Below are positions 4,387 through 57,343 of a DNA stretch of 64,000 nucleotides, piece after piece (position 1 is the first letter of the stretch; each line of letters opens with the position of its first letter). Source of the stretch: Narcine bancroftii. Its lineage: Eukaryota. Both the position numbers and the translations under genes were made by a program. Below the pieces are notes generated by a model. That model saw only the letters and a list, made by a program, of their open reading frames with translations. It was not told the DNA's origin and searched no databases. The stretch is from NCBI RefSeq assembly GCF_036971445.1, contig NC_091477.1, positions 21,638,001 to 21,702,000 on the forward strand, given 5' to 3'.

Positions 4387-4478
4387 TTATGCTTCAAATT
4401 CAAATCCAAGGCCAAGTTTATGACCACCACCATTAATATTCTTTCCATCCAGCAGCGCTGACAGGCTTAATTTAATAC
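4387..4478 (-). CDS. VDAC1: VDAC1 last coding exon ([30 protein letters not shown])
   Basis: 92 nt ending in TAA; C-terminal beta-signal KLGLGFEF. Confidence 0.95.
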
Positions 4479-7400
4479 CTAAGAGAAAGAATAATCAGTC
4501 ACAAATACTAAGTCCATTTACCTCTCATTAAACTGTTATTACACGTTCATCCATACAAGTACATTCATAAAACTATTGATACAAGTTAGAACTTAGTTGA
4601 AGTTTACCCAAGTTAAATTCCTCCACTTAAACTTTAGTATTCCTGCATCCTTACAACATTTTAAAGTAATGACTCAAATCCTCAATTCACACATACAATG
4701 AATATAGAGTGTAAATCCAACCTCTAAGAATATACTGGATAAAGGGAATGTTATATATGGAGTCAAACTATTTGAAGTGTTGTGTTTGACTAATCCAGAA
4801 TTTTAAGTTTTGAAGAGATTAAATGAGCAATGAAATAACCTCAGCTGGTGCCTCACTAAACAGGGCATACAAATAAGTTCCAGATCTCAGAAATGTTGTT
4901 TGTGATAATGCCTCAAACAGACCAGAGACCTCGGACTCATTCCTCTTTTTCATTCTATTAGCGGAGTAGCAGAGGAAACAAACTGTATCAGAATCACTGC
5001 CACAGATATTTCATGCAACAGTCATTAATACAAACTGATCAATGGCAAATTTGTACAAGTTTGGGAAAACCTGACAAAGTTGAATATTTAATTACAAAAA
5101 CAATATCAATGAAGGATTGTCATAATTCTCTATTTATGCTATTCCCCCAAGAAGGGGAAAAATCATCACTTAGTGATAGCCGTAAAACATAGTCGATATA
5201 ATAAGTAAAATTAATATTGTGCCACAATACCCATTTAGATATTTTTATACAAGACTAAATTAGTTTAAGTCAAACAGCACTCACCTGGTTTTAGGATTTG
5301 AGAGTATCCAAGTCCAATAAGACTCGAATTGTTCACTTTAATCTGACAATGAAAGAATAAATTCTTTATTAAGCAGTTCTCCCCCCACAAAAAAAAATCA
5401 CATTAACTGTTAATGGTATATTATTGTTATGAGTGTGACATGCACTTTGGAATGCATGTATATCATGGTGCCCTTGCACAAAAAGACAATCCAAACAAAG
5501 AGAAAAAAAAAATATATATATATACTAACTGAGCATGTTGCATCATCATCAATCTTGTATTTTGCTGCAATTCCAAATCGAGTATTACTATTTCCAGCTG
5601 TCCAAGCGAGATTGATGCCAGTTTCAAGATTTTCATTGATTTTTTGATAAATGGAGCCACCAAATTCTGTACCATCATTTCTGTAGCAAGCAACAAGCAT
5701 GTTATTTTGAAGCACTGATTTTAGTTTTCATAAAATCAACGTTATAACCTAGGAACCAATATTTCTCCAATTGTATACTTGTATCAAAATTATTAACTAT
5801 TTTCAATTAATGTCATTTTTAAACCGTCTTATTGTCAGCTGCAAATTGATACAGCTTTGAATTCAAATCAAATGTTTTTGGGTTGAAGATCCACTCCAGA
5901 AACCCAAGCTACCAAGGCTAGCACAATGTGGCATTACTGAGGGAGGAGTGCAATTACACAGATGTTGTCTCTGAATGATGTTATAATTTGGTCTTTTTTT
6001 CCCATATATAATTCTTTTCTGTTTATTTGATTCTGTATCCCATTAATAGTAATACTAATAAAAATGCAATTTTCCAGCCATCGGATCACTTTACTAAATC
6101 TACTAACCATCCATTTTTCCACTCCCATCTCTCTCATTTTTAAAACACTAATATCATATTTTGTAATATTTTTGATATATTTAAGTATATCGAGAGTTAC
6201 AAGCCCAGAGGACCCCAAAACTCAGCAGCAATAGATATTCACCAAGACAAATGGTTACTTAAACAAAAGTTGTTTTTAATTATCTTTAAACATGAAAACA
6301 GGATCAAACTTTATCTTATCACTATTAACTTAACTAATTTAACTTAACCCCCTTCCAATTCTAAGTGCATGTGTATGTAATGTGTGTGTAAGTTTAGAAA
6401 AGTTCTTTGATTCACAGTCCAATCTCACTTCTTATTCCTCCAAGTCCAATTCTTATACTATGCACAAAATTTAACATTTATGAAGTTAACCAGACTTTGG
6501 TGCTTGTAAGGTAAATGGCTCAGGAAGGTTCTTGTCGATTTTCAGAGAGAGATTTGCTGTTCCTGGACACAAACTGATCCCTTTTAATCAGCCATGTCAG
6601 TGTCTTGCCGAAGAAACTTGCCCCATCAGGGTTTTCCAGATGATAACCTCTTTCTTTCAGGTCACCAAAAAAATTCCTTTTCGTTTCTCTTATTTCAAGT
6701 GAAACATTAGGCTGCCAGCCTTCTCAACTTGCATGAACCACAAGGGCCTTGACGAGGCAGAACTAAATGGAGTTTTTCCACAAGCTTTCCATCTTGTCCT
6801 GTTCCAGTCCCAGCTGCTACTGACTTGTAGCACTGAAAAACAGATCTCTCTCTGAGAAAAAGCTGTTCAACTCTCTCTGCTTGCAAAAACCACACGCCCT
6901 CTTCGAACAGCAAGCTTCACTCCGAGACAGCCTGCGGCTCTAAATTACTCCTCCAATCTCTTTCATCTGTTGCTTTTCAAAACAACAATCCATTGATGAA
7001 GTCTCTTGGCCACTCCCCAAAGTTTTTTTTCAAAGGCCCTCAGGAGCTGCCCTGTCTGGCTTGAGCAGGGCTCCAGTATTTTAAGTGAGATCTGTTTTGG
7101 TGTTTGTATGTGACCTACACTAAAAAAACTGCCCCAATTTATCTCCCAAAAACATATCTATATGCAATACAAACACAACATAATCTGTCACATGAGAAAA
7201 AAAAGAAAAACAGAAAAAGATAGAACCCCACCCCCCACCAAAGGCTTTCATTATTAATGATATTTCCATAAAACCCTGATCTATACGAGTTGTGGTCAAA
7301 ACCACACCAGTACTCATGCCTTCGTAGAAGTTAGTCTTCACTCCTAACTAACTCTCTTGAATTTCTGTACTGTCCTTGGTGTATTAGATCTATACAGTCT

Positions 7401-10400
7401 TTGCCAATTACAAATTTTTACTTATTTGTAGATCCTTTGGGTTAAAAACTTTCCTCCCTAATATTCTCTCTCTCAAATTATTTTTTTAATGTTTGCTCTT
7501 TCCCTCTCTATATTATCTGCTATAATCATTCTGTATTATCTCTCATTTCAAACATCACTCACTTCTTGTCTCGCTTTCTCAGGCAATGAATCTGCAAACA
7601 CCTTTGCCTCAATTGGGCTCCTTAAAAAATTTATTTTTCTCTTCTAAACAAAGACTTTCAATACTGATTGATACCCTACGACAGGGGTTCTCAATCTTTT
7701 TGTTCCTCTGTACCCCTTGGGCATTTTTATAGGTTCCCGTATACCCCTAAAAATTAAAGATAAAAAAAACACGACACTGTGCAATCTAACTGCAGATTAC
7801 AACACCATGTATTGTACAGTAGAGGTTCTTCTCTCAGAGCCAATGTACCCCAGGTTCGGAATCCCTGCCCTAGGACAAAAGCGTAACCTTTCTTCCATAA
7901 CACATTTTTAACAGCATTGTATTCTTTTTTTCAACAAATCAAAACTTATATAAGGGTAAAAGAAGATCTTATTTCCATTATAAATTAATGGTGATTGTCT
8001 TTCTTTCACTTGTTTCACTACCATTTCCTACATCTTTTCCCTCACTTCATAGAGAAGCAATTTGACCAATATCGGATGTGAATTTTGATCTGGTTGTGGC
8101 TTCGGTCGTAACACTCTGAGCTCTTTCAATTTCAATGTCTCCTTGAAATTCAGTGAGCCCCCCAAAGATTGCGGAATCCAACATCGCAAAAACTTCTTCA
8201 TTTCCTACCTTCATCACCTTCTTTGTCCAACAATTTTTATATTATTTGTGCTACTAAAATGTCAATTTTTTTAGTTAGTTGATCTTTTGTTGCAGCCGCT
8301 TCAGCTTGAATGTTTTCCATCTGTTCTTTAACATTTTGAATTACAAATTAATTTTCTTTAATTTTTTTGCTTCCACAACTTCAAATTTCTTATACACTTG
8401 CATCATTCTTTCCACTTTCTTTCTAAAATTCTTATTTTCAACTATACGCTCATTACATTTTTTTTAACTTCTACTGTTAATTGCACCAAAGATTGCTGAA
8501 AATTTTCCATGTATTTTTTCATATCAGCTGTAGATATAAAAGTCTCCTTCATTTTTTCTGACTTTTTAGCCATAGCTCCTTGCTCTTGATGTAATTCCTG
8601 TTCTTCTTGGTCTTCATCCTGATCACTGGAGCCTCTTTTTTTGTGCTCTGCTCATGTGTGACTCCTCACGCATGTACAAAGTCACTTCTTCTCCTGTGGC
8701 AGGTGGCCATTGTCGGGGGAAGATCTTATACACCAGCGTTCAAGGTCTCTCCAACTCCAGACTTTTCTCCATGGACTCTGACCTTCCAGATAGCTCCAGG
8801 ATCCTTCTTCAAGGTAGGCCTCTCTTGTTTATCCGTCTCTTTTTCTTGTTCAATTTCTTGTGAAATTACAGCTGCTTTGTCTTTCTTTGGTGACATCTTG
8901 TACTGTTTACTAGATCTTCTAACAACTTTTCCTTTTTTTTTACTACTTCAACCTTTATTAACTTTTTTTCAAACTTTTTCAGAGAGAGAACGGATTCACA
9001 CCCCCCACAAATAACCTGTTTTTTTTTAAAGGTGCCTTGATCAACATTCAATCCTCTAATCAGAGATTTTTAAATTCAAAAATAGACATACAGTATGGTA
9101 ATAGTCACCCAATTAACCTAAAACCCCCAGTATGTTTTGAACAGTGGGAAGAAACTGGAGCTCCCGGGGAAAACCCATGCAGACACAGGGAGAGTGTACA
9201 AACTCCTTACTGACAGAGCAGGATTTGAACCCCCGCCTCAAACATTGGTGCTGCAAGTGTTGCACTCACCTCTACGGTAACTGTGCTGCCCCACATTATC
9301 AAGCGCACAAACTGTTTGCCATTGTTTTTCCTACAGTGACAACTTCAAAAGTACTCTTTTGCTTTAGATTAGGGGTCTCAAAAGTGGTCGATATCAAACC
9401 CTGAGGATCAATGGACAATCCAGGGGGGTCAATAAATGCCATGGGGGGGGGGGGGGGGGGGGGGGGTTGGGGAAATTTTTTTTAATGAAAAATAAAAATC
9501 GATAAACGGCAGAGGGTGGGTTAGACTTAACTTTTGAAAATAGAGCCTATGGCAGGCATGACCAATCGCTCATGAGAGCTAGTCTTGGTGGCCTTCATGT
9601 TGTATTTGACCTTTTAATAAGTAGAGAGCAAAGGACTGATGGAGTTGGAGAAGAAAGAGTTATGTGCCAATTGCCCAACCCAACCATCAGGCGCTGCCAC
9701 CCCCCCCCACTCCCCCAGCCCCAGGGGTCAATGAGGATTCAACAATTCCATGACGGTCCAAAAGGTTCAGGGACCCCTGCTTCATACTCCAGAGAAAACA
9801 ACCAATAACCAAAAAAAACAAACTTGAAAACATGTCTGTGTTCAGTGAAGTAAAACACCACCCAGGCAAATGTTTTCTTGACAAATTGTTTCAATGACAA
9901 AATTACAAAGTACTAAAGGTTTGTTCAAAATATACATTCTTAATGGAAACACTTGGCAAGAAAAATTTCCCAATTCATAATTGTGTAACAATTAAATTAT
10001 GCCTCAAGTCTTATTTTACGGAGTCTAGAAGACCCCAAAAACCAGCCGGAATAAATTATCACCACAACACAGGGTTATTTAAAGAAAAGTAGTTTTAAAT
10101 TATATTTGAACAAGAAAACAGAATTAAACTTTTACTTATTACTTAACCTACCTAACCCCCCCTCTAATACTAAGTGTAGGTGAATGTAATGTATATTTAA
10201 GATTAGAAAAATTCTTTGGATCACAGTCCAATCTCACTGGTTGCAGGCAATTCTTGTACTGTGCCCAGAAGTTAGCATTAACAAAGTTCACCAGTCTTTG
10301 GTGCTTGACAGGCAAATGGTTACCACTCAGGAGGGTTCTTGCTGGTTTTCAGAGAAAGATTCCTTTTCCAGGACATCCGCAACTGATTCCTTCTCAATCA

Positions 10401-13400
10401 GTCTTGCTTACGAAACTTGCCCCCTTCAGGGTTCTCCAGAGGATCCTCTTTCTTTCAGGTCACCTTTCAGACCACCAGTCTTCTCCTTTGTCCAGTCAGC
10501 CTTCCAAAGTTTGCCAGCTTGTCCCTCTGGAATGGATTTCTGTGACTCTTTCTCACTCCCTCCCTCTCTGAGAGCAAAACTGTTCTGTCCCTGCCTACAA
10601 AAATCACATGCTCTCCCAGGCAAGCTGTACATCGATACTTCGTTGCTCCTCTGCAAAAAGCACTCTGCAAATGTCCTGCAAATCCTGTGCTTTAAAATGT
10701 TTGTGTGCAAGCTGCTCTAACAATTCCTCCCAAACCACCTCCAAATACTCTGTTACAATACCTCTAGTCTATTATAAATTATATCATTATATGTGTGTAG
10801 GGGAAACACACACAGAGAACAGAATACTTAGCACTTTTAATTGCATTGATTCAACATTTTTAAAACTTCAAAACAAGTTGCTCAGAAAAAGGTCCAGTCA
10901 ATTCAAATTATGTAATAAAATAATCAACACTTTAAACAACATCACACAATTGTACAGTTCTGTTGTATACTAGAGAAAGAATGTTGCAGCATTTAAAGGA
11001 AAGTAGAAAAAAATTCAACAGAATGTTGCTTAGAATAAGGGGCTTTACTTATAAAGCCCCTTATTCTAAGCAACATCTTGTTGAATCTCTCTTTTTAATG
11101 CTACATCTTTAAGAGAGTGCATAGGCTGGGTTTATTCTCGTTTCTTATTGAAGTTTATAAAATCATGAAGGGCATTAAGTAGATAGAGTCTTTCTCCATG
11201 TGCATGTCTATAACTAGAGGGCAGAGCATTAATATGAGACGTAGAAAGTTTATAGAATCTTTTAAGAGGGCAAAGTCTGGAATATGCTGTCTGAAGAAGT
11301 GGAGAATAGATATTTTCAGAATCTCTAAGCATCTAGTCAAGACTTGAATGGCCATGGTATTGGTCTATGGGCCAAATGCAGGGAAATGAGATTAATGTAG
11401 ATTGACACAACAGGCAGTATATACATTGAAGATTTGTTTCTGCGTTGTATGATTTTCAGATTAAGGACAACAACTCATAACAGTTATCCATTTTAATATA
11501 TCAAAAAGTGCATTTACAAGTATAATTGTTATTTCTAGAAATTATCCAAAATGTCCTTTCTTCGAAGACCATTCACAAACCAAAATTTTGATACTTATTT
11601 CTACAGAAACAAAAGATATGTGTACCTACACATTTGTATGGAGCTGAAAGTCATCTGTCCTGTATCCTACAGCAAAGTTGCTCTGAGATATTCTGGATTT
11701 TGCAGTTTCAAAGGTCATTTGATATCCTGCTAGCCATCCATCAAAACCAAACACAAAGGCACCACGTACAGCTGGACCAGCAATATCGAAGTCAACATCA
11801 ATTCCCAAATTCATGTGTTCCCTCTTGTAACCAGTCTTAATTTTACCGCTTTTCTTCCTATTTTGAAATATAGCCAAAAAAACACAAATTTATTCCATAT
11901 ATTGCTTCATGAATTACTTTTAAGTACACAAAATTAGAATGTACCTTTTCCATTCAAATTGTTACATCTATGGGAAAAAATAATTTTATATATTTAAACT
12001 TCCAACAAGCTGTGGGACTCACGGACAAGTTCCCACCCACCCTGTTTTAGAAAAGTGATTTTTTTTCCACCAATAATCTCAGGTTGCTTGTGGGAGTTTG
12101 AACTGCATGCTCCACAGTATCACTGCCACAACCAGAGAAGATACTCAGTACCAATTTACTCAATAAGGTAGTGTAAATGTTATAAAATGCAAGGTATTTT
12201 TAAAATTTAAACATACAGCACAATAACAGGCCATTTCGAACCATGGTCCATGCTGCCCAATTTACACCCAATTAACCTACAACCTCTGGTACGTTTCGAA
12301 CGGTGGGAGGAAACTACAGCTCCCAGGGAAAACCACGCAGACACAGGGAGAATGTACAAACTCCTTTTAGGCAGCGCAGGATTCAAACACCAATCCCGAT
12401 CATGGCGCTGTGAAGGCATTGCACTAACCACTACGCCAACTGTGCTGCCCTATAAATATAGAATGCTTACAGATACATGAAATTTATTTTAAATTGAAAA
12501 TAATATTTATAAATATTTTGTTCTTTATATTGACTTTTTTTTTAAACTCACCCTGTATTAGGTGCAAATGAAGAGTCAAATCCAATCTTCAGCCCCTTCA
12601 GAAGCTAAACAGAAAAAGTGTTTTGTACTTTAGTTTTAAAAAGCTTAATATTTGCCCTGATGCTTGTTTTTTAAAAAAGCATATTTACCTGATCTTCAAT
12701 AGTGATTTCAGTTCCTAAAATATTATCTGTATTCCATTTTTCTGTGAACGTCAGTCCATAATCCACCCACTTGTATTTTGTTTCCAAACTTCCAGAAACT
12801 TTGGAGGTATCCATGTTTGTCGACCCAGCACTTGTGAATTCCTACAACAGAAAACAAGTTACTTGGTAGGATAATTCCATTTATTAAATAATTAATATCT
12901 CAAAGCAATTATTTCTGTAAGCTGTTAGCATAGTGCTGTAACAGCACTAGCAACTGGGGTTCAAACCTGGGGCTGTCTGTAACAAATATGTACATTCTCC
13001 CCTTGTCTGTGTGGGTTTCCTCCCACCCTTCAAAACGTTTTGGGTTGTAGGCCAATTGGGCGGCACGGACTTGAGGGCCAAAAGGGCCTGCTCCCGTGCT
13101 ATATGTCTAAATTTAAAATTAGCATTTCTGATTAAATGTTAATCATTCACTTAGACAATAAACGATTGTAGTTTCTTCCTTACAGTTAAGCTTTCAACTA
13201 TTAATGCCAAAGATTTTAGGACAACTATGAAATGGAGAAAAGCTATATTTTACCTTCCCCAATCTTGAGCACTAAAGCCATCTGCAATGACCTTTCTGCA
13301 GTTCCAGAAAGCATCCACACAATTTAGCTGTTTGTGGCTTTCTTGGAAAATCCCAAAATGTTGATGCACGACTCATTGGGCATCCTCAAAATTCTTTTGA

Positions 13401-16400
13401 ATACTTCTCCATGCCTGCACACATACTGGTGTGTATTAAACCAAGTCTCAGCACAAACTCATTGATACCATTCAATTCTTCAATTTTACTAAATGAAGAA
13501 TTACATTGAACGATGTGGGGCTTGATGAGTTTTTCCAGCACTTTTATGTCTTAATTACAATGATAGCATCTGCAGACCCTCTGGTTTCATTATTTTCATT
13601 TGCTGTTGGTCCATTTCCAAAAATATTTATTTGATACAGTTTAAAAAGCATGCACTAAAAAGTGTAACTTTAATTTTTTGCTCTTTGGATCATGAATTTT
13701 AAAATAAAATTGGAAAGTAACATAATTGAGCATAATCAGAATGGATTCATGAAATGGATAACATTCAATCTCTTTATCAAGTTCTTTGATGAAGTATCAC
13801 AGAGTAGATGAGGAACAAGAAAATACAATATATTTGAATTTTTAGAAGTCTTTCAACAAAGACTTTCAGAAATATAACTGGTGTGGAACTGGGAATGGAA
13901 TGGGAGTTGTTTAACTGAGATAAAGAAATAAATAGATCCTTCTCACATTAGCAGATTAACACCAGGCTCCCAACTGTTCAATGATTTGGTCGGGGAACCC
14001 CAACATCAAATTATTAGTTAGATTTTATCTTATTGGAGCTACTCATTGCCTGGAAATTACATAGCATGAACATTTGAACATACATAAACATTGTCTACAA
14101 TTGCTGAATGCAGACATGAATTTTGTTATTCTCAAAATGGTGGCAAATGCAATTGAACATTGTGCATCAAGTGACAATCCCACTTCTAATGTTATAATGG
14201 AAGGCAGGTTATGATGATGAAGCTGATGCCACAGCACTCTGAGAAACCCTGCAGTGACTTCTGAGGTTAAAGAATTCAACCTTTGGAATATTACTCCTTT
14301 ACTGCCCAATGGATCACTATTTGAACAAAACTCACCAATGTCATACTCTGTCAAATCCAGCCTTGGTCTCAATGGTCCACTTTGCAAATGAGGTCTGAAC
14401 CCCAAATGGCCCAGAAAGATCTCAAGTGGGCATTGGTGAGCTTCCCATTTCATAACACTGTCATGACACCAAATTTTTTGACATCTTCTTTGTGAACAGT
14501 ACCAACGTGGGAAAATGGTCATACAAGGAAACAAGTGCCATAGGTTCACTCAAACACCTGACCTAAAGGTGCAGCAAGTCTAGAGTATGGGTCTTTAGTA
14601 GAACTGCTAGATTCTTGCCCATTGCTTTACTGTACAATACACTCAACATTTTTTTCATGTCATGCAAACTGAATTTTGTAATGGTGGTGATCTTGGGAGG
14701 AACCCAAAATGAATAACTAGCTCAGCATTTTTAGATACACATAGTTGCAAATATTTCAGCCTTGTCTTTTGCCATCATACATTGAGCCCAGCATATTATA
14801 AGCTCCTCCTCCTTCAGCTATTTAAATTATTTATCATCATTCACAACCAAATGTGGTAGAATGCAGAGATGCACTGGATCAGATCCAGTGGTAATGGGAT
14901 TGCTTAGCCATGACTATTGTTGAACCAAGATTTGGCCAATTCAGTTAGTGGCAGTATTACAAAGCCACTCTTAATGGTGGACATTAGAGACTCCACCCAG
15001 TGTGCATTCTGGGCTACATCCCATGGATTCTTCCATTTTTAGTTCAACATGGAAGAGTATGGATTCATCAGCTGAGAGTGAGCATTTTGAGGTAATACAA
15101 AGGGCTTTCCTTGCCCACAACTGACTCAATGCCAAGATATTTCAGATTAACTATCAGATATGTTCAAAGAACTAAAATCCCACCTCTGATGACTATCCTG
15201 ATGGTTGGTAGGAAATATATACATATAATGTGATGGAGCCTGGCATTGTTGCCAATAAAATATGATTACAAGTAGTTCAGGCTATTGTTTGACTAGTTTG
15301 CATGACAGCTCTCCCAATTTGGATGCCAGTGCATTGATGCTTGTGACAAGGATTTCACAAGATCACCGAGCTGAGACCAACTTTGCAATGTCCAAATCTT
15401 GTGTCTAAACCAGCCATTCTCAACCATTTTTTTGGCTTTGGCTCCCTTAAAAGTCTGCTCAAAGTTTATGGGCCCTTCCCTGTGAAGCAGTCAAGTTTAG
15501 TTGGTTTCTCCGTTCTTCTCTCCTACCGGCTATATAAAAAATATTTTTTAAGATTCCAGTCCATAGACCACCTCCTGAAATGTGCTATGGCCCCCAGGGT
15601 GCCCACATGGCCCCGTTGAGAAATGGCTGGTCTTAATTGTTGAATTGAATGGATTTGTTTATTGTCATGTGTACAGAGATAGAGAAAAACTTTGTTTTGT
15701 GTACTATCCAGGTAAGTCAACCCATATATTAGTACAAGGTAATGCAAAATAAAACAATACATGAGTCGATCATCCAGTTTTATATTTTTCCTGTTAACTG
15801 AATCAACATAATGCCACAGAAAGGCTTACTATCATTGCTGTGGGTTTTGTTATTAAAGCTAGGAAATATAGAATATTAACCCTGGACCATAACCATCCTG
15901 TAGGTTTCATGTTCATAATATATTTTTTACATTTCAGATTATTAACTAAATTTAGCATGAAGGAAGACGTGAGGAAAATAGTTCAATTCCAGTGAAGAAA
16001 AAATACTGTAACGATCAGGCAGTGTGTTTTTTTTTCTCTCACAACTAATCCTACCAATCCTATTTTCTAAAAAAGTAATTGTATTAAAAGATGGATGATA
16101 TTTTCACTCTCCTCAGCACCAATACATGCCTACAACTTGCAAGTGAAAGCTGCACTGTTTAAAAATAAAACAATTTTGTACTACTGACTACATATTCACC
16201 TCAAACATTAAAGGATATTGGCATAACATTAGTAAGAAACAAATTTCACAGTAAATTTTCTTACAACAGCACTTACCAGTCCATTTTCTGACTTTGTTTT
16301 TAAATCCAGCTTGACTAAACCAAATCCTTTCAAGAGATCAAAGATAGATTTAAGATACTTAGTTATTTTTCTGATGTAAAATTTCAATTGGTTGCCTACA

Positions 16401-16824
16401 TAAATGCAGCATATTTAATAATTATAAATCAAAGTATATGTAATTAACACAATCACATACAGTTTAAGTAATGGCTCACAGGCAAGTTTGCAACATAGCC
16501 ACAATTTAAAAAGTAACATCTAAAGAAACAATTTCAGTGCATGGATTCATTCATCACAATTCAAGTGACATCAGCTCATAGCCCTCCTTCTCCGCAAAAA
16601 AAATCTCACGAACACCAAATTAATACAAACTTGTCTCAGCATGGTACCAAAAATGTAATGAAATGCAATAATCTTCCACGTTATAATAGTCCACATGCCA
16701 ATTCTTTGGACAGCAGCTGTTTCTAGTTCTGATAAATTGCATTTTTGAATTTCTTACCATAGCCTTTGGTGAAAACATCTCTGGCTGCTTTTCCAAGATC
16801 TGCATAAGTTGGTGGAACTGCCAT
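4387..16824 (-). CDS. VDAC1: Voltage-dependent anion channel, VDAC1-type; join(complement 16758-16824,16277-16326,12689-12841,12552-12604,11630-11857,5530-5680,5285-5342,4387-4478), 283 aa
   Basis: Eight GT-AG-bounded exons of 67/50/153/53/228/151/58/92 nt total 852 nt and splice in frame, from [23 protein letters not shown] to [18 protein letters not shown]1-type motifs: [30 protein letters not shown]73 is retained. Orthology versus a sister paralogue is not proven. Confidence 0.93.
5285..5342 (-). CDS. VDAC1: VDAC1 coding exon 7 ([19 protein letters not shown])
   Basis: 58-nt exon with AG and GTGAGT boundaries. Confidence 0.95.
5530..5680 (-). CDS. VDAC1: VDAC1 coding exon 6 ([13 protein letters not shown]...KIDDDATCS)
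   Basis: 151-nt exon, contained in ORF 5410..5715. Confidence 0.95.
6195..7192 (-). mobile_element. Solo LTR, family A, copy 1
   Basis: About 1 kb, homologous to 55971-56989; ends (A)GTTAC...GTCACA; flanks cgag/tgag consistent with a 4-bp TSD after CpG decay. Confidence 0.75.
7240..9060 (-). mobile_element. Degenerate L1/Tx1-like ORF1 region
   Basis: T-rich plus strand encoding K/E-rich coiled-coil-like fragments on the minus strand, with many stops. Confidence 0.5.
7682..7867. mobile_element. hAT-type MITE nested in an L1-like fragment
   Basis: Termini CAGGGGTTCTCAA / TTCGGAATCCCTG; 8-bp TSD ccctacga/ccctagga. Confidence 0.75.
9075..9290 (-). mobile_element. V-SINE-like element
   Basis: Homologous to 12205-12450. 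Confidence 0.65.
9370..9779. mobile_element. Probable hAT-type MITE
   Basis: Inverted ends AGGGGTCTC / GGGACCCCTG; weak 8-bp TSD. Confidence 0.5.
10014..10757 (-). mobile_element. Solo LTR, family A-related shorter variant
   Basis: Shares gaccccaaaa, cacagtccaatctcact and gaaacttgcccc blocks with the other copies; ends TGTTACA; no clear TSD. Confidence 0.65.
11013..11086. repeat. Inverted repeat, 25-bp perfect stem with 4-nt loop
   Basis: 11023-11047 is the exact reverse complement of 11052-11076. Confidence 0.95.
11630..11857 (-). CDS. VDAC1: VDAC1 coding exon 5 ([18 protein letters not shown]...DFQLHTNV)
   Basis: 228-nt exon, contained in ORF 11626..11877. Confidence 0.95.
12205..12450 (-). 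mobile_element. tRNA-derived V-SINE-like element
   Basis: Core tttgtacattctccctgtgtctgcgtggttttccctgggagc..tttcctcccac on the minus strand. Confidence 0.7.
12552..12604 (-). CDS. VDAC1: VDAC1 coding exon 4 ([18 protein letters not shown])
   Basis: 53-nt exon following an 84-nt intron; GTGAGT donor. Confidence 0.95.
12689..12841 (-). CDS. VDAC1: VDAC1 coding exon 3 ([51 protein letters not shown])
   Basis: 153-nt exon with canonical splice sites. Confidence 0.95.
12920..13120 (+). mobile_element. V-SINE-like element
   Basis: ggttcaaacc B-box, core, tail atgtctaaatttaaaatt. Confidence 0.65.
14040..15400 (-). mobile_element. Highly degenerate non-LTR element (APE endonuclease region)
   Basis: Minus-strand [11 protein letters not shown] and AQNAHWV..NVHH-like peptides. 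Confidence 0.4.
15411..15629. mobile_element. hAT-type MITE
   Basis: Termini CAGCCATTCTCAAC / GTTGAGAAATGGCTG; TSD gtctaaac/gtcttaat. Confidence 0.7.
16277..16326 (-). CDS. VDAC1: VDAC1 coding exon 2 ([17 protein letters not shown])
   Basis: 50-nt exon with AG and GTAAGT boundaries, in frame. Confidence 0.95.
16758..16824 (-). CDS. VDAC1: VDAC1 first coding exon ([22 protein letters not shown])
   Basis: AG acceptor at 16830-16831, 5 nt of UTR (GTAAA), ATG at 16824, GTAAG donor after 16758. Confidence 0.95.
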
Positions 16825-24009: not shown

Positions 24010-24314
24010 ATGGGGAGGTGTGTGTGCTCTGTGATTAGTAAGGGATTGCTTAAGTGGGAAGGGAAGGTTGAAAATCACTGCTGTAGCCCTAATTGTTATT
24101 GAAATATTTGCTTGAAAAAAATTGTCATTGGCCAATTTCCTTTGGCGTAATGAAACAGTGTACATAATGAGTCAATTCGAACGTTTAAAGTGGTGATTCT
24201 CAACCTTTTTTTCCACCCACATGCCACCTTAAGCAATCCTTTACTGATCACAGAGCACCTATGGTATAGGGAATACATGGTATGTGAGTGGAAAGAAAAA
24301 GGTTAAGAACCACT
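24010..24314. mobile_element. Adjacent hAT-like MITE pieces sharing an inverted block
   Basis: gtgctctgtgattagtaagggattgcttaag versus cttaagcaatcctttactgatcacagagcac; ttctcaacc/ggttaagaaccact ends. Confidence 0.5.
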
Positions 24315-43800: not shown

Positions 43801-46800
43801 ATCAAGATGTGCTAGTCCCAGGATGCCGCTCATCAAGATGTGCTTGTCCAAGGATGCCGCTCATCAAGATGTGCTTGTCCCAGGATGCCGCTCATCAAGA
43901 TGTGCTTGTCCCAGGATGCCGCTCATCAAGATGTGCTTGTCCCAGGATGCCGCTCATCAAGATGTGCTTGTCCCAGGATGCCGCTCATCAAGATGTGCTT
44001 GTCCCAGGATGCCGCTCATCAAGATGTGCTTGTCCCAGGATGCCGCTCATCAAGATGTGCTTGTCCCAGGATGCCGCTCATCAAGATGTGCTTGTCCCAG
44101 GATGCCGCTCATCAAGATGTGCTTGTCCCAGGATGCCGCTCATCAAGATGTGCTTGTCCCAGGATGCCGCTCATCAAGATGTGCTTGTCCCAGGATGCCG
44201 CTCATCAAGATGTGTTAGTCCCAGGATGCCGCTCATCAAGATGTGCTTGTCCCAGGATGCCGCTCATCAAGATGTGCTTGTCCCAGGATGCCGCTCATCA
44301 AGATGTGCTTGTCCCAGGATGCCGCTCATCAAGATGTGCTTGTCCCAGGATGCCGCTCATCAAGATGTGCTTGTCCCAGCATGCCGCTCATCAAGATGTG
44401 CTTGTCCCAGCATGCCGCTCATCAAGATGTGCTTGTCCCAGCATGCCGCTCATCAAGATGTGCTTGTCCCAGCATGCCGCTCATCAAGATGTGCTTGTCC
44501 CAGCATGCCGCTCATCAAGATGTGCTTGTCCCAGGATGTGCTTGCTTTCTTGTCCAAGGATGCCGCTCGTCAGGGTGGGCTTGCCGCTCGTCAGGGTGGG
44601 CTTGCCGCTCGTCAGGGTGGGCTTGCCGCTCGTCAGGGTGGGCTTGCCGCTCGTCAGGGTGGGCTTGCCGCTCGTCAGGGTGGGCTTGCCGCTCGTCAGG
44701 GTGGGCTTGCCGCTCGTCAGGGTGGGCTTGCCGCTCGTCAGGGTGGGCTTGCCGCTCGTCAGGGTGGGCTTGCCGCTCGTCAGGGTGGGCTTGCCTCTCG
44801 TCAGGGTGGGCTTGCCGCTCGTCAGGGTGGGCTTGCCGCTCGTCAGGGTGGGCTTGCCGCTCGTCAGGGTGGGCTTGCCGCTCGTCAGGGTGGGCTTGCC
44901 GCTCGTCAGGGTGGGCTTGCCGCTCGTCAGGGTGGGCTTGCCGCTCGTCAGGGTGGGCTTGCCGCTCGTCAGGGTGGGCTTGCCGCTCGTCAGGGTGGGC
45001 TTGCCGCTCGTCAGGGTGGGCTTGCCGCTCGTCAGGGTGGGCTTGCCGCTCGTCAGGGTGGGCTTGCCGCTCGTCAGGGTGGGCTTGTCGAAGGATGCCA
45101 CTCATCAAGGTGTGCTTGTATGTGGCTGCTCCTCCAATGAGTGAATGTTAAATCCTTGACTTGTGCACAAAGTATATTCGATTACATGACAAAGAAGTGA
45201 AATTTCTCAACAAATATCTATAACTTTTAAATCTCCACATATCCTTGATTTTGTTGGTAAGTTTGTAATAAAAGAACATCTCATTTCCTTATCTGATAAA
45301 TCTTGTAATTTGATACTTTTTTTTAAATAAAATTGATTTCTATGTTGTCGGACATTCCAAATACAGGAGTGGTTTATTGTCAACAACAAAAGTATAGAGG
45401 CATTATTTAGGTAAAGAAGTCCCTGCAGATGCTGGGGTTTAATGGAGTACACAAAAGTGCAGCAGAAACTCAGCAGGTCATGTTCTGTAGATAGTTTGTC
45501 TAGCAAGATGGAGAAAAGGGAGAGTTACCAGAAACGGACCAAGTGAATTTGAAGCCAGCGTGGAAGATGGCAGCAAAGTTGTTAAGTTTCTGGAGAGTTT
45601 GTCTCTTGAAATGAGTTAGAGATCTTTCGGTAGATATTTTGTCTCCCAAAACGTTTCTGCAGATAATTTGACTCCAGAATTTTTTTAGTTTGTCTCCCGA
45701 AATATTTTTTTAAAAAGTCATTATTTACATTTTTTTGGAAAAACCTGTAACAATAAATTTGGTCTACTGGTTCAGCTGCTGGATGCTCTTTAAAAAGAAT
45801 GAATTTTAAACAATCCCAGTTGGTTGTAGGTTTTTTTCTACGGATTATTGCTTTTCAGGGAGTACTTTGGAGATAAAAATGACAGGGTTAAAAAATCAAC
45901 TAAAACAGGATTTGAGGGAAAAAAATTGTAAGTTGTACATGTTATGTTGCTAATTTTAAATTGGAAATTTTAGTTTTAATCAGATTTAGGAAGAAATTAA
46001 TTGAAAGGCCAAAGTTATATTGACTGGGATAGATGTAACTAGAAAGAAGGGTCACACTCCTGTGGATATTTTCTTTTGCTCCTCTACTCCTACGTAGGGC
46101 CTCTGAAATAAAAACAAAAATTACCAGGAATACAGTGAACATGCCAATTCAGAAAGGGCAATGGGTATAGCAGAAGATATTCACTGTTTCAAATAAATGT
46201 CAAATCAATTAAATACATGAAGTGACAAAAATGAGGTCAGTTTGTTTAAAATGCTGAGAGGTAAAGAATCAATACGAAAAAGGATCTGAAAAGCATATAA
46301 AACAAAATCCCCTACCTCCCATCAAAAAAAATCCAAAATCTAAAAAAGAAAACTAAAACTCCAGTGGTCTCCCCAAAAATACCCAAAGGGGAAAAAATTG
46401 TTTCCGTCATATACTTCTCCCATGAGAGCATTGACTGGTTCTATTTTTAAAAAAAATGAAAATTGGTAAAGGCTAGAATTATATAAATTTTCAGGGTAAT
46501 TTACAGAGGAGATTAGAATCAATTTCATTTTAAACTAATTCTGTAATGACTTGGTGTAATGATGGTTTAAAGAATTTTCACAGCATTGCGGGGGCAGACT
46601 CCAGTCATAGCCAGAATTCTTGCTCTAAGCAGTAGAGGTACAAGATCTGAGCATTCACTGTTTAAATGGTTGCTGAGTCTGGTTCCAATAGGGACTAGCT
46701 CTCCTTCATGACTAGGAAAATAGTGTGGAAAGAATGTATGTAGCTTTGATTGAGTAAGGAATTGGGAGAAATTGAAGTTGGGTACTTACATTGGAAATCA

Positions 46801-49800
46801 AGTTGCTCTATAGAATTTTTTTTGCGTTATGATGGCACCATTTAGTACATCTCAATACAATGGAATGCAGGTAACTTTCCTGAAGATTCTGATTTGTATT
46901 TCAAGCAGAAACATTAATTTCATATGTAGAATGACTTTCCAGCAAAGTGCATCTTGTTATTTATGGAGAGTGTGGCAGGTGTCTGATTCTATGCTTTTGG
47001 CGAAGATTTCTGTGTCGTCGGAGGTGACATCTTTTGTCGAAGATGTTAAGACTTCTAATCCAGGGATCTCTCTTGGTATCAAAGATAATATTTCCCAAGT
47101 CAAATTGCTGCGGTAGTACAGCCAAAAAATGCTGGGGCAATTCAGCAAGACAGATAACAACCCTTGGAAAGAAAAATTAACAATCTAAGACTGATCATGA
47201 TATGAATCTGAAAAACCTGCACTAATGAAATGTGCAATAGCAGTATTGTTTCTTGTTCCACAGAAACAAAAGTACAAATACATTATTTGCATCTATAAAA
47301 CCAACTATGGCAATAATTTTATAGTCTGCTTGAGACTCCAGATGATACCTTATTTTGAACAGTAATGTAAAATATTGGAATACCAGTCTGCATATTCCAA
47401 GCGGAATTGGCCACCTGATTTCAGGTAAGACACTAAGGGGATTGGAAGGCTTTATAGTTTGAGATGCTAGTTTGATTTGGTAAAAATTTTCACTCAAAAA
47501 TCTGTTTTCTTGATATATTCTCGAAATGCCACATACAAATAATATATATATAGTATAACAAGATAGAAATATAAGAGTTGGAACTTAATATTGCAGTTAT
47601 ATTAAAAAAAAGTTAGTTTGATCACACTTGAGTTCTATGTGCAGTTCTGGCAGGCCACACTACAGGAAAATGATTGCAATAGAGAGAGTTCAGAAGGGGT
47701 TCACCAGGACATTGCATGAAAAGGGCGGCTACAGTTATAAGAAGTTGGATGGACTAATTCTCACTGGGATGTATGAGGCTGAGAGGTAACCTTATTGATA
47801 TTTACAAAATTCTGAAGGGCATCAATAGTGTAAGTAGTTAAAGGCAGGACAGGAGAGTCTAAAATTAGAGGACACAATTTAAGGTGAGACAGGATCTGAG
47901 GACTAGGTTTTGCACACAGAGGGTGGCAAGTGTTTGGAATGAGAAACCAGAGAAGCTTGTAATGGCAGGTACATGAATAGGAAAGAAATTGGGGAATACT
48001 GGCCTAATGCAGAAATGTGATGTCCCAGACTAGCAATTGGGTTGTTGATTACTGAGAACAACTGAATTGAATCAAATGTAATATGAAAGAATTTAATTTC
48101 ACAAATTTTCAATGAAACAGGAGTGTGAAAAGAAGGTATGAATGCAATTGAGTGAAACCTCTAATTGCAAAACATCTATAATTGTAAAATCGCTTTGATT
48201 GATAGCCATTTAGGAGAATGCAAGAGCTCTTTAAAGTGATACATAAATGCTCATCTGTTTATTTTTAGGAATAGTCTTTGCTCCATATGGTTTGATCTGG
48301 AAGGAGCAAAGAAGATTTTCCCTCTCCACTCTGAGACATTTTGGTTTTGGGAAGCTTGATCTTGAGCCTAAAATTCAAGAGGAACTACAACTTGTGAAGT
48401 CACAGCTTTCCAAAGCAGTCGGGACAGCCTTTTCTCCTTTTCATGTCATTAATAATGCTGTATCTAACATAATTTGCTCAATGTGTCTTGGAAAACGGTT
48501 TGACTATGATGATGAGGAATTTCGAACCATTTTGCATCTGATTGCCCGAGGAATGAAATTGGCATCAAACAGCCCTGCAATGCTTATCAATGTATTTCCT
48601 GTACTTCAGTATTTACCTTTTGGGGCTTTCAAGGAGGTTTCCCAGACAGTAAAGGACGTAACATCATTCCTGAAGAACATCATTGCTGAACATCGAAGAA
48701 CTATGGACCCTGAAAATCCACGCGATTTTGTTGATTTTTATCTAAACGAAATTGACTGTGAAATAACAAAAAAACAAAGCACAAGCTTCAATGAAGATTA
48801 TTTATTTTACATAATTGGTGACCTCTTTGTAGCAGGAACAGATACAACATCCAACACTTTGTTGTGGGCTATTCTCTTAATGGCCTCGTATCCAGAAATT
48901 CAAGGTACTGATTAACCATTTTTAATCAAGATAATAATGTTTGTAAATGTTAAGGTGGAAGGATGATTCCTACATTACAAAAACTATACCCCTACCATAA
49001 TAACAATAGCTATAGATAAACATGGTGATTTCATTGAGGATGTCATTATAAGCCCGCAGCTTTTTTTAAAAAAAACATACAAAACCTTGCCTTTCAACTT
49101 TTGACAAGTGCTCTTTGAAATGGAGGGAGAAAGACATCATTAGCTATCTTTAATTATTCTGGAAATGACTATTCTACTGTTTCAGATTTCCTGTAATTTA
49201 ACTACAGTCTCATCACCAACCTCAGATTTTGCTCTGATAACTTGTCTCTGCAGTCCATGTCAATTTGGCCAGGATTCCATGATTGATTCTGATTAATCAG
49301 GTTTCCCCTCATTCATAGTACTAAAATTATTTTTACTCAAGTCAAAAATTAACCTCTTTTGGGATTGTGATGAAGTTGTTACTGTCCCTCCTTGACCTTT
49401 ACCTGTAATGCAGATTTTAATGCTGACTGTGCAGTTTTCTTCCAATATGTCTTCAAAATTCTCGAGCAGAATAGGATTGTTCTGCACATTCTCCAATCAG
49501 TGGAATCTAAATTTACAGTTAGAAATTTTCTTCCCACTTGTTCGGCATTATGGCGCAGATAGTGTAGCAATTAGCCTTTACAGCAGGGGTTCGAACACTG
49601 AATTCTCTCTAAAGAAATTGTATGTTCTCCCTATGTCCACTTTATCTCTTTTAATAAATTGACCTCCTATAATTAAATGTCAAATTGTTTGCTTACACTT
49701 CTTTAAGGTACAGTACCTAGGGCTGATTTATGACATTTAAGATAATTAGTAAGGTGGCACAGAGTATTGACAGTATGAGTATATATGAGCTGTGATCCAC

Positions 49801-52800
49801 TTGCTATCTTCCACAAGAATGGTTTGCAGACTCTGGTTTGCACAGGTTTTGAAATGGATATTTGGTTGCCGTAGGAAGAAAGGAACAGTAGGAGGGAGAG
49901 TCTATCAAATGGTGAAATTGATAGAAACAGAGTTCAAATGTTGTCACCATACTTTGGTATATGCATAGGCAGTCTTGCAAAATAGATGGAAAATCAATCA
50001 TTTTAAGAATTGAGGGGACAGAAGTTGCTGAGAATTAGGAGAAAAAATTTAAATATATTGAAACTATTAAAGGAAGTTTTGCTTTTGAAGGCTATCTAAA
50101 GTTTAAAACTGGCAAGGATGTTGCTAAGTTGATGACTTCTAAAATGTTAGGTCCAAAAGTTGCATAGATGTTTGTTGAGATTATTAAAAAGAGCTGGAGT
50201 TTTAAACTGATATATGAAGATAGGAAAGCCAACTGGCATTGGAATCTTTGATTGACAGAACAATGTTGACTGTCATGTCATGCCAATGAAACAAATGTAG
50301 CAAATTAATGCAGCTATGGTCTATTATACTGATGTACAATTATATTACATTCAGTTTTACTTCTTGAAAAGAGCAATTATAACTTAATTTCTATAGGTCA
50401 AATATGTGCAAAGATTTTTTTCTGTTTTTCAGTAAATGATAATTCATTTCAAACAATAACACCTCAATGTAAGCCCTAAAACTATTCTTTAGAACATTTC
50501 CCCATGTTAAGTGTTGACTTTTTCGAGTAGACCTTGACCATTAATTCATCGTAACATTGATGAATTTCAATGCTTTATTCAATTTCATCCCATTCTTAAC
50601 TGGGACAAACCTTTGACAATCTCTAACTCTGTAGCTAAACTGAATGAATTGGTCTGTAAACAAAGTTATTCTTTTGTAGAACAGGTTCATAGAGAGATCA
50701 GGGATGTTATTGGTGAGTCCAGATCTCCTTCCTTCAAAGACAGACATCGTATGCCATTCACAGAGGCAACAATAATGGAAATTCAGCGGATGACTACAGT
50801 TGTTCCACTAGCCATTCCACATATGGCATCAGAAACTGTTGGTAAGTTTGCAATTAATAGTCATTACACAAGAAACTATGAATTAAAGATTCACCCAGTT
50901 TTATTCTGCATTTCCCATAGTTAATTGACGTAGCGGTTAGCATAATGCCTTTACAACACCAGCATCAGGACCAGGGTCTGTGAGGAATTTGTACATTCTT
51001 CCCATGTCTGCGGGGGTTTTTCCCAGGGGCTCCGGTTTCCTGCCACCATTCAAAAACATGATGGGGGTGTAGGTTAATTGGGTGTAAATTGGATGGCATA
51101 GACTCGTGGGCCGAAATGGCCTGTTACCATGCTGTATGTCTAAATTTTAAAAATTAAAATCATAATTTGTGATACACTTTTACATTATTAATCGTAGCAA
51201 ACTTGACACAAATTTGGATAATAAAAGCAATAATGCTCAAAACATCTTGGAACATCTGTAGAAACAGAAGCAATTAATATTTCAAGTTGAAGACTGGGAA
51301 ACCAAGAGAGGCTTTAAGTTGCAGATACTGTGAGGAAGGATTGGATAGATCAGAGTATTCTCTGTCCCAGGGTTGCCTTGGGAACAAAATGTTAATTAAG
51401 TCATATACATAATAAAATGTGCATGTGTAATGAAATTCTTCATTGGATAAGTCAATCGCCATTTGGAAAGAGAGTACATGAACGAAGAATATTAAATTTC
51501 CAACTTGTAGAGCTGAAAGAAATGGTCCGTAGATCAAGCTATACTAAAAGTGAGAGAATTTTATTTATCTGATCTCTCCAATATTTTTATTAACATCAAA
51601 AAATACATAAGGATATATGTTAAAAGTCAGGAAGATGCATTACTCTTAAATCATATCATTTCATCCAAGGTACCCCACATTTTCAATCAAGCAAATTGTT
51701 TTGTATTGACATTTTATTATAAAAACGAAAATCTGAACCCACTACCAAGAAAGAAATTGTTTGGCCAAAAAAAAGACAGAATTCTTATTAGAGTGATAAA
51801 TTACCTCATTAGTCAACACATTCTACCTTCATATCAAATCAAAGATTATGAAAGTAATTCAAAAAGGGTCCCCATAATGTTTGAAAATTTGAATTCAAAT
51901 CAGAAATTGAGCATCTAATCTTCCATAAATTTAAACATGACATCCGTAATCATTGAGCATGAGTAGGCGGAACAACGTGCCTCCATCTAGCCATAAGAGA
52001 AATAAAAGCTAATACATGCAGATCAGATGCTGTTAAAGTTGTGTTATTCTCTCCAGCAATACCAAATAAACCAGTTAAGGGATTAGGTTTAAATTTAACT
52101 TTAAAAGTGCAGAGAAAGTTTATCACAACGAGGAGATACATCTGCATAAAAACAAGATAGTTTGACTTTGGAAATGTGAGCCCTATGGACTACTTTAAAT
52201 TATAAGAGAGTGGCAGGCAAATAAAGATGAGGTATAAACTAATTTGAAAATTACACTTCGTTTCTTCAGAAATCTAAAGCTGTAGGTTCTGTTCCCAGGC
52301 TTGTTTTTAATCTTATCTGAGGGAGTCTCTTATTCCCAACAACATATCATAAATGTTAGATATTGAACCATTATAGAAAGGTTGTAAGTTAAAAATTGCA
52401 CCAATTAAATTCTTATCAGTTCTCTTAGGAAATGTATGATCTGATCCCTCAATTGGATTTTGTACAACAGAACTGATCAGTTCTGATGCAGACAAGTGAA
52501 GTCATTGAACAACAACGAGAAGCTGGAGGAAGTCTGCGAGTCAGATTGCATCCATAGATAGAAATGGTCAATCAATATTTTGGATTTAATTGAGATGATC
52601 AATCAAGACAATGCCAAACCTGCTGAGTTCCTCCAGCTTCTCATTGTTTGCTCATGCGCTCCTGTATCTGCAACTTTTGTGTTTCTCCTGTTGAGTTCAT
52701 TGCTGAGTCTGGAGGACCATAGCATATCCAAATGGAAGATTAAGGTGCTGCTCCTCAAGCTTGCATAGAGCCTCATTATCGTAGCATTGGCCATGGGTAG

Positions 52801-55800: not shown

Positions 55801-57343
55801 GAATGGGAGCAGGTCAATGGGACTAGTGAAATAATGGTTGGCACAAACTAGAAGGGCCGAAGGCCTGTTTTCTGTGGTGTAGCATTCTTTTGTCCTTCTG
55901 AGATTGGCTGTCAGCTGCAATTAAAGTTAAAGTAGGGTGCTCTTGACACACACACACACGCTATTGAAAATGTTACGAGCCCAGAGGACCCCAAAACCCA
56001 GCAGTAATAGGTAATCACCAAGACAAATGGTTAAACAAAAGTTGCTTTTAATTATTTTCAAACATGAAAACAGGATCACACTTTAACTTATCACTATTAA
56101 CTTAGCTAATCTAACAACCCCCTTCTAATTCTAAGCGCACATGTATGTAATGTGTAAGTTTAGAAAAGTTCTTTGATTCACAAGTCCAATCTCACTTCTT
56201 ATTCCTCCAAGTTTACTAGTTGCAGGCAATTCTTGTACTGTGCACAGAGGTTCACCAGGCTTTGGTGCTTGAAAGTTAAATGGTTACTGCTCAGGAACAT
56301 TCTTGTCGGTTTTCAGAGAGAAATTTGTTGCTTGCTGGACATCCACAACTGGTTCCATTAATCAGTCACTTCAGTGTCTTGTTGAAGAAACTTGCCCCCT
56401 TCAGGGTTTTCCAGATGATAACCTCTTTCTTTCAGGTCACCTTTTTGTTTCTCTTAGTTCAAGTGAAACATTAGGCAGCCAGTCCTCTCCTCTTGTATGA
56501 ACCACAAGGGCTTTGACCAAGCTGAACTAAGCAGTCAAAAACCCATCTTCAAAATGGGGTTTTTCCACAAGCTTGTCAGGTTCCAGCTCACCTGCTGCTG
56601 CTGAACTCTAGTACTGCAGAACTGATCTCTCTCTCTCTCTCTCTCTCACATGCACAGAGAAAAGCCTGTTTGACTCCCTCTCTGTTTGCAAAGACCACAT
56701 GACTCTCTTAGAACAGGAAACAGCATTCCCAGACAGCCTACGGCTCCGAACCTACTCCTCTGAGTTCTTTCATCTGTTGCTTTTTTTTTGTAAACAACAA
56801 TCCATCATTGAACTCTCTTGGGCACTCTCCAAAGCTTTTGTAAGGGCTCTTGGAGGCTGCCCTGTCTAGCTTGAGCAGAGCTCCAGTATTTTAAATAAGA
56901 TAATAAGATCTGTTTGAAATGTTTTATGTGACCTACACTTAAAAAAAACTGCTCCAATTTATCTCCAAAAAAATCTATAATCTCTCACAAAAAAGAGAAG
57001 AGGGCTTTGAGTTTCAGCCATAAAATTAGATGGTTTTGTTTTCTTCATTAATTTGAAGAGAAGTAGGGCTATGCAATGGAAGAAATCTGTCACTAGATGG
57101 CACTGTGCAATAGTATGTTGTACTTCAGATTTCTCTTACATTGGTCCCTTGTTTTTTTAATCAGGAAAAAGAATCTGCATGGGAGAGCAAATGGCAAAGA
57201 TGGAACTGTTCATCATCTTCAGCAGTCTCCTGCAGTCATTTTTCTTCAAACTACCTGAAGCTATTGATGCACCAAATATGACTGGTCAATTTGGTCTCAC
57301 TCTGTCTCCACATCCTTTTAAAATCATTCCTGTTAGAAGATGA
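37500..57343 (+). CDS. CYP2U1: Cytochrome P450 2U1-like; join(37500-37860,48269-48904,50680-50841,53244-53411,57165-57343), 501 aa
   Basis: Five exons of 361/636/162/168/179 nt (1506 nt), all phase-1 GT-AG introns. N-terminal TM helix followed by PAGP; WxxxR (WKEQR); I-helix AGTDTT; ExxR (EIQR); PSRF; heme motif FGIGKRICMG. CYP2U1-type segments: [27 protein letters not shown]. May be a paralogue rather than the orthologue. Confidence 0.88.
38023..44561. repeat. Tandem satellite, 31-bp unit GATGCCGCTCATCAAGAYGTGCTTGTCCMAG with interspersed 55-bp (31+24) units
   Basis: Directly visible, about 6.5 kb in CYP intron 1. Confidence 0.98.
44562..45086. repeat. Minisatellite, 25 x 21 bp GCCGCTCGTCAGGGTGGGCTT
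   Basis: 525 bp, near-perfect, abutting the 31-bp array. Confidence 0.98.
45540..47560 (-). mobile_element. Degenerate L1/Tx1-like ORF2 fragments
   Basis: Broken minus-strand frames, e.g. GFIDANN, RQKYLPK, ESAPAML. Confidence 0.4.
48269..48904 (+). CDS. CYP2U1: CYP2U1-like exon 2 (GIVFAPYG...ASYPEIQ)
   Basis: 636 nt, within ORF 48247..48915; ttttag acceptor and G|GTACT donor. Confidence 0.93.
50680..50841 (+). CDS. CYP2U1: CYP2U1-like exon 3 ([12 protein letters not shown]...PHMASETV)
   Basis: 162 nt, K-helix ExxR motif, GTAAGT donor. Confidence 0.93.
50925..51155 (+). mobile_element. V-SINE-like element (older copy at 53780-54000)
   Basis: gtagcggttagc A-box, core gctccggtttcc, tail atgtctaaattttaaaaatt. 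Confidence 0.65.
51550..52490 (-). mobile_element. Degenerate L1-like 3' ORF2 fragment
   Basis: Minus-strand PNPLTGLFG and LAFISLMAR peptides, typical of fish L1 C-termini. Confidence 0.45.
52500..52955 (-). mobile_element. Penelope-like 3' fragment with inverted terminal segment
   Basis: KLEEQHL peptide; GCTGAGTTCCTCCAGC-type motif present in both orientations. Confidence 0.55.
53244..53411 (+). CDS. CYP2U1: CYP2U1-like exon 4 ([10 protein letters not shown]...FMPFGI)
   Basis: 168 nt, PERF-like PSRF motif, ttgcag acceptor and GTAAG donor. Confidence 0.93.
54060..54741 (-). mobile_element. Diverged family B-related LTR in CYP intron 4
   Basis: TGTGGTG/CACCACA termini; shares the acctggcatggagt block with 36375-36391 in reverse orientation. 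Confidence 0.6.
54960..55885 (+). mobile_element. CR1-type LINE 3' fragment
   Basis: [49 protein letters not shown]. Confidence 0.8.
55971..56989 (-). mobile_element. Solo LTR, family A, copy 3
   Basis: TGTTAC...TCACA termini, AAAA on both flanks, homologous to 6195-7192. Confidence 0.75.
57165..57343 (+). CDS. CYP2U1: CYP2U1-like exon 5 ([16 protein letters not shown]...IIPVRR*)
   Basis: 179 nt, contains the heme-ligand Cys, TGA at 57341-57343. Confidence 0.93.

Follow-up and report, generated by a model that had tools for sequence, protein, structure and literature searches.

A CYP2U gene beside VDAC1 in the ray Narcine bancroftii, possibly the duplicate of the CYP2U1 kept by bony vertebrates

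The window analysed here, a stretch of 64,000 nucleotides from the electric ray Narcine bancroftii (contig NC_091477.1, positions 21,638,001 to 21,702,000), contains a divergent pair of genes: a VDAC gene on the minus strand, with 8 exons and 283 aa, and a CYP2U gene on the plus strand, with 5 exons and 501 aa. In bony vertebrates CYP2U1 is the neighbour of HADH and not of VDAC1, and it seems somewhat probable to us that cartilaginous fishes and bony vertebrates have kept different members of a CYP2U pair which arose in the second vertebrate genome duplication (2R). An earlier note on this sequence described both genes as intact, with only repeats recognisable between them, and this agrees with our models. 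The stop codons, at 4387 for VDAC and 57343 for CYP, mark the ends of the pair, every intron is GT-AG, both frames are free of internal stops, and the window has no N. The window was read on both strands, 35.0-36.5 kb and 38.3-45.0 kb by means of open reading frame (ORF) and repeat scans only. The following features were found.

4387..16824, minus strand: VDAC1 coding region, 8 exons, 283 aa; open frame, GT-AG introns; Porin_3; 96.5% identical to Pristis VDAC1; in the VDAC1 clade (100/100)
16824-16758, 16326-16277, 12841-12689, 12604-12552, 11857-11630, 5680-5530, 5342-5285, 4478-4387, minus strand: VDAC coding exons (67, 50, 153, 53, 228, 151, 58 and 92 nt)
22050..22800, minus strand: CpG island, presumably the VDAC1 promoter and non-coding first exon; GC 0.58 and CpG observed/expected ratio (o/e) 0.85 in 22001-23000
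22800..37400, no strand: spacer of ~14.6 kb separating the divergent pair; nothing but repeat-type sequence recognised
~27.9-30.1 kb: degraded retroelement in the spacer
33.66-33.93 kb: C-rich tract in the spacer
37500..37860, plus strand: CYP2U exon 1 (361 nt), with a hydrophobic anchor at the N-terminus and a proline-rich hinge; short form, the bony-vertebrate insert being absent; CpG-rich (o/e 0.77)
38023..45087, no strand: satellite arrays in CYP intron 1, ~6.5-7 kb, a 31-bp unit x214 followed by a 21-bp unit x25
48269..48904, plus strand: CYP2U exon 2 (636 nt), I-helix AGTDT; 100% identical to Narcine CYP2U1
50680..50841, plus strand: CYP2U exon 3 (162 nt), EIQR, K helix
53244..53411, plus strand: CYP2U exon 4 (168 nt), PSRF and first half of the heme motif
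57165..57343, plus strand: CYP2U exon 5 (179 nt), heme Cys, stop

The P450 gene carries the core motifs AGTDT at 309, EIQR at 366, PSRF at 421 and FGIGKRICMG at 440, as expected of a family 2 P450; the general P450 patterns are (A/G)GxDT in the I-helix, ExxR, PxRF, and FxxGxRxCxG around the heme. The Pfam domain p450 was found on all five exons. Over the catalytic domain the identity is 58-60% to bony-vertebrate CYP2U1 as compared to 40-44% to other CYP2 proteins. The six intact bony-vertebrate CYP2U1 gave 57.7-59.5%, and a coelacanth model with an aberrant C-terminus gave 48%. P450s that share more than 55% identity are named as one subfamily, and by this identity, together with a common clade, the window P450 is a member of the CYP2U subfamily. 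Its I-helix and heme regions are near-identical to those of CYP2U1. Most likely, judging from the sequence, the ray protein is anchored in the membrane and hydroxylates long-chain fatty acids close to the omega end, like the human enzyme, an omega/omega-1 hydroxylase (PMC3012610, PMC4964396).

Our model is the same as the stored protein 'cytochrome P450 2U1 isoform X2 [Narcine bancroftii]' over the first 386 aa, exon 2 being 100% identical. Isoform X2 skips the first 19 residues of exon 4 (53244-53300) and then matches to the end, which fits an internal acceptor near 53300. It is probably inactive, because the 19 lost codons lie in the conserved core.

The CYP tree had 32 rows, 9 chondrichthyan, 19 bony-vertebrate and 4 other CYP2, with CYP2R1 not among them. 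Partial and duplicate isoforms were omitted, the N-terminus and the insert were trimmed, and the outgroups were long-branched. CYP2U formed one clade (28 rows, 100/99), made up of the chondrichthyans (99/98) and the bony vertebrates (93/91), and the branch between these two groups amounted to 0.22+0.14 changes per column. The distances were 0.82-0.88 between shark and bony vertebrate, 0.75 between tarpon and salamander and 0.25 between elephant shark and shark. Tree depth was considered as a test of paralogy and found not to be decisive, with 0.82-0.88 standing against 0.75 for tarpon and salamander.

Among the best 120 of 835 CYP matches there were ~95 tetrapod entries and 12 named chondrichthyan ones, which represent 11 species and each share 77-100% identity with the window gene. 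Tetrapod and coelacanth CYP2U1 lay at 55-62%. The same 120 included one ray-finned CYP2U1, six multi-P450 models of other CYP2 and four unnamed matches at 57-60%. A second shark CYP2U group was seen neither among these 120 nor in the tree. The search of 50%-identity representatives was uninformative on this point, as a second copy at ~60% would share a cluster with the first (3 of 150 rows were at >=59%). A slowly evolving shark copy of the canonical CYP2U1 should rank among the listed tetrapods and none does, which is fair but incomplete evidence that chondrichthyans have a single CYP2U.

It is conceivable that chondrichthyans retain two genes, the window copy and a canonical CYP2U1 at SGMS2-HADH, but we find this quite improbable. 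With ray-finned CYP2U1 present as only 1 of the best 120 of 835, a fast-evolving second shark copy could hide, the four unnamed matches at 57-60% could be of interest here, and a distance of 150 kb between the Papss1 and Hadh promoters of the skate leaves space for a gene. On the other hand, each of the 12 named chondrichthyan entries is of the window's type, a slow canonical copy would be expected to score at least as well as the ~95 listed tetrapods, and the 19 'cyp2' rows in the part of the skate file covered include no CYP2U and no gene of the skate chromosome Leri_1C (PMC10115646). The proposal in the earlier note of a second, additional CYP2U therefore found no support in these entries, which all fall into one clade.

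The window gene was also said to be missing the insert specific to CYP2U1, and this is correct. The interval from the hinge to the PH motif has 14 residues in the window, 14-18 in other elasmobranchs, and 29-42 in 18 of 19 bony-vertebrate CYP2U1. Stretching over roughly 15-25 residues after the proline-rich hinge, the insert is absent from 8 of the 8 stored elasmobranch proteins that cover the region. As an argument for a second CYP2U on the TCF7 segment, which is how the earlier note used it, the missing insert is weak. Echidna CYP2U1 (P0114) has 18 residues in the interval and is also without the insert, which is therefore labile and not diagnostic of paralogy, and it was rejected as a marker. 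Probably the insert is a gain of the bony vertebrates. The echidna protein, from which most of the insert is missing, appears to represent an independent loss in a mammal.

The VDAC gene is most likely an ordinary VDAC1. Porin_3 (Pfam) was found on three of the four VDAC exons tested, the best PDB matches are VDAC1, and E73 is present. The identity is 96.5% to VDAC1 of the sawfish Pristis, 91% to sawshark VDAC1, 80.6% to elephant-shark VDAC1 and 81-84% to bony-vertebrate VDAC1 (82-83% for tetrapods), as compared to 70-73% to VDAC2 and VDAC3, Narcine's own VDAC2 included. In a tree of 51 rows the window protein falls inside the VDAC1 clade (23 rows, 100/100), where it groups with elephant-shark VDAC1 (91/82). 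In the column patterns, 22 columns join all VDAC1-type proteins against VDAC2/3, four join elasmobranchs to the elephant shark, and two put the elasmobranchs outside other VDAC1. VDAC is a channel of the mitochondrial outer membrane, and by analogy the ray protein should act as one in the usual way. It differs from other VDAC1 in its long elasmobranch stem branch (0.10) and in its cysteines, as Narcine VDAC has a single one, at 233, and has I127 and T232 where mammalian VDAC1 has cysteines.

The best 120 of 1443 VDAC matches contained seven named chondrichthyan entries (three VDAC1, three VDAC2 and one VDAC3), and the only elasmobranch VDAC1-type clusters in them, one of 11 members and one of 14, were of the same kind as the window protein. 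No second such cluster was present among these 120, a list that reaches down to VDAC3. The list has one representative per row and 13 unnamed rows, and a copy that matches a non-shark representative at 90% identity or more would stay hidden in it.

To establish which chromosome segment the window represents, we turned to gene order in other species. Human 5q31.1 has the reverse of the order seen on chromosome Leri_11C of the little skate. The skate series consists of Ube2a-1 at 50.21, Ppp2ca at 50.27, Vdac1 at 50.69 and C5orf15 at 50.73 Mb, while Leri_1C has Papss1 at 116.81, Hadh at 116.96, Rpl34 at 117.59 and Skp1 at 117.61 Mb, all of these being promoter positions (PMC10115646 SI Table 10). 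Skate Vdac1, which we infer to be the same gene as the VDAC of the window, is 40 kb from C5orf15 and on the TCF7-numbered chromosome (PMC10115646, PMC9303524). The thorny skate has TCF7 on chr11, at 10.5 Mb, and LEF1 on chr1 (PMC9303524). Independently of this, VDAC1 is joined to C5orf15/KCT2 in fused gene models of sturgeon, whitefish and camel, VDAC2 is joined to SAMD8, and a turtle model joins CYP2U1 to HADH; a VDAC-like model of 417 aa (P0123) was checked for a fused C5orf15 part and had none. In the window itself, a tblastn search with C5orf15/KCT2, HADH and SAMD8 domains gave no exon beyond the last exon of VDAC. The upstream neighbour of the window CYP is VDAC1, and with no HADH exon in the window, which ends before the next gene downstream of CYP and reaches neither C5orf15 nor TCF7, the gene is probably not in the SGMS2-HADH position of a strict CYP2U1.

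The Amblyraja CYP2U entry lies on a sequence of 66.07 Mb, which corresponds to chr11 by size only. It is too short for chr1, whose little-skate counterpart exceeds 117.6 Mb, and the Amblyraja gene is therefore most likely away from the HADH/LEF1 chromosome. The CYP2U entries of whale shark, zebra shark and sevengill are on sequences of 74-79 Mb. From these data as a whole, the window most likely belongs to the VDAC1/TCF7 segment, and CYP2U most likely lies apart from HADH/LEF1 in at least two batoids.

This gene order also bears on the second option of the earlier note, a fourth VDAC, sister to VDAC1, next to the true CYP2U1, in which case the pair would be on the LEF1 segment. The elasmobranch VDAC shares no more identity with elephant-shark VDAC1 (80.6%) than with the VDAC1 of tetrapods (82-83%), its placement outside all other VDAC1, to which the two columns mentioned above conform, has a p-AU of 0.278 in the approximately unbiased (AU) test, and the tree alone does not reject such a gene. 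Against it, skate Vdac1 sits in the C5orf15-Ppp2ca neighbourhood on chr11, the best 120 of 1443 matches have no second elasmobranch VDAC1-type cluster, and the Amblyraja CYP2U entry is on the 66-Mb sequence. From the skate gene order, above all, we hold a fourth VDAC to be very improbable. A search for 'VDAC4' in the open-access literature returned plant papers only.

The adjacency of CYP2U and VDAC1 was observed in this window alone, and the large Narcine chromosomes (125 and 255 Mb) suggest fusions, so that a rearrangement specific to Narcine or an assembly join could be suspected. However, the window is without N, and in the skate, too, the sequence with the CYP2U entry is shorter than the chromosome of HADH and LEF1 would have to be. 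An event in Narcine only is extremely improbable in our opinion.

The second genome duplication gave rise to TCF7 and LEF1 as a sister pair (PMC9303524 section 4.1). Among bony vertebrates, the CYP2U1 genes of zebrafish and human share synteny (PMC3012610), the human one being at 4q25 (PMC4964396). The reading to which we incline is a reciprocal loss of a 2R pair, where cartilaginous fishes kept the CYP2U of the TCF7 segment and bony vertebrates the copy of the LEF1 segment. VDAC, CYP2U and TCF/LEF would have been neighbours before the second duplication, which would have given a TCF7 segment and a LEF1 segment with CYP2U on each. Both copies would have persisted until sharks and bony vertebrates split, after which the LEF1-side CYP2U may have been lost in sharks and the TCF7-side CYP2U in bony vertebrates. 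This would imply that the shark 'CYP2U1' is an ohnologue, a hidden paralogue and not a strict orthologue of human CYP2U1. What stands of the first option in the earlier note, a second CYP2U gene on the TCF7 segment, is thus the location, as the more likely one, and an ohnologue origin as the best explanation, but not the additional copy. The gene was also expected to be one absent from mammals; if it is an ohnologue, it seems to have been lost in all bony vertebrates sampled and not in mammals alone, and mammals keep its sister.

A simpler history would be a single CYP2U1, a true orthologue, that changed segments on the stem lineage of either chondrichthyans or bony vertebrates, whether by transposition or through exchange between duplicated chromosomes that were still similar. 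One copy was found per lineage, the topology and depth of the tree fit orthology, and 'cytochrome P450 2U1' is the plain NCBI name of most of these proteins among the matches listed. Human CYP2U1 has five exons, as does the window gene. Five exons are also found in zebrafish CYP2R1 (PMC3012610). It speaks against a relocation that TCF7 and LEF1 segments are 2R sisters, and a random move of CYP2U is therefore unlikely to land beside VDAC1, on the sister of its own segment. Moreover, Skp1 appears to be displaced in the opposite direction at the same pair of segments, and the internal branch, at 0.36, is long compared with the 0.25 between elephant shark and shark. We consider a relocation unlikely.

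Several observations weigh against reciprocal loss. A tree in which sharks are the sister of bony vertebrates is equally expected of a true orthologue, and the depth of CYP2U is not clearly greater than that between tarpon and salamander. The NCBI names of most listed chondrichthyan and tetrapod proteins, the non-rejection of an elasmobranch VDAC outside all other VDAC1, and the fact that CYP2U next to VDAC1 was seen in the Narcine window only, count on the same side. Linkage of VDAC and CYP2U in lamprey or amphioxus gave no rows in the supplementary tables searched, and the portion of the skate workbook covered has no cyp2u1 row (PMC10115646).

Under reciprocal loss, the divergent layout of the two genes would be a relic of gene order, with no common promoter. 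The CpG island on the VDAC side (~22.0-22.8 kb) is ~15 kb from the CYP start codon (37500), and a shared bidirectional promoter is therefore unlikely; it was rejected, as ~15 kb of repeats separate the promoters. The term 'head-to-head' in the earlier note holds for the divergent orientation but is loose wording at this distance. In the sequence of the presumed non-coding first exon of VDAC1, a donor-like GT near 22427 is a candidate only.

Human SKP1 adjoins TCF7. In the little skate, Skp1 (Leri_1C, 117.61 Mb) is found beside Rpl34 and ~0.65 Mb from Hadh, on the LEF1 side (PMC10115646). With one promoter position and an unsuffixed gene name, skate Skp1 looks like a possible second hidden paralogue, the mirror of CYP2U. 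It is possible, if rather doubtful, that CYP2U and SKP1 were sorted oppositely between the TCF7 and LEF1 segments in sharks and bony vertebrates. If this were true, the 2R segments would still have carried duplicates, or exchanged material, at the time when the lineages parted. Two genes regarded as universal 1:1 orthologues would then be hidden paralogues, and shark CYP2U would be an insert-free sister enzyme with no counterpart in bony vertebrates.

Differentially retained 2R ohnologues are known from the little skate, where 68 cases were described (PMC10115646). As in those cases, cartilaginous fishes would have retained the gene on a 2R segment where bony vertebrates are without it. The difference is that the loss of CYP2U appears to be reciprocal, with one copy per lineage, so that it passes as 1:1 orthology. 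We found no row for cyp2u1, Vdac or Skp1 in the sheets of that workbook which precede SI Table 4 (PMC10115646). In listings of the open-access literature no paper was found that treats shark CYP2U1 as misplaced or paralogous, and nothing was found there on CYP2U1 with shark synteny or with elephant shark. The gene is probably an unreported case of hidden paralogy, an already known phenomenon, and not an extra gene or a new enzyme family.

In the literature CYP2U1 counts as stable, with a single copy and 1:1 orthologues (PMC3012610), and its loss in humans leads to spastic paraplegia SPG56. Should the gene of sharks be the second member of the 2R pair, the orthology given in databases would be wrong for shark CYP2U. 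It would be further evidence that the loss of duplicates after 2R continued past the split between sharks and bony fishes, and a caution against taking genes of this kind as single-copy markers. As a CYP2U that naturally has no insert, the shark protein is also suited to testing the role of the insert.

The long ORFs at 38-45 kb, with stop-free plus-strand frames of up to 1944 aa, are artefacts of the satellite arrays and were discarded. A perfect 26-bp minisatellite, repeated 12 times, is located at 21432-21752, just within the presumed first intron of VDAC1. Three copies of a dispersed element of ~1 kb, 74-82% alike, were seen at 6196-7162, 10013-10467 and 55972-56979. Downstream of the CYP gene there is a LINE-like element on the minus strand, of which the two pieces at 60644-61473 and 62769-63600 are 98.4% identical, indicating recent activity.

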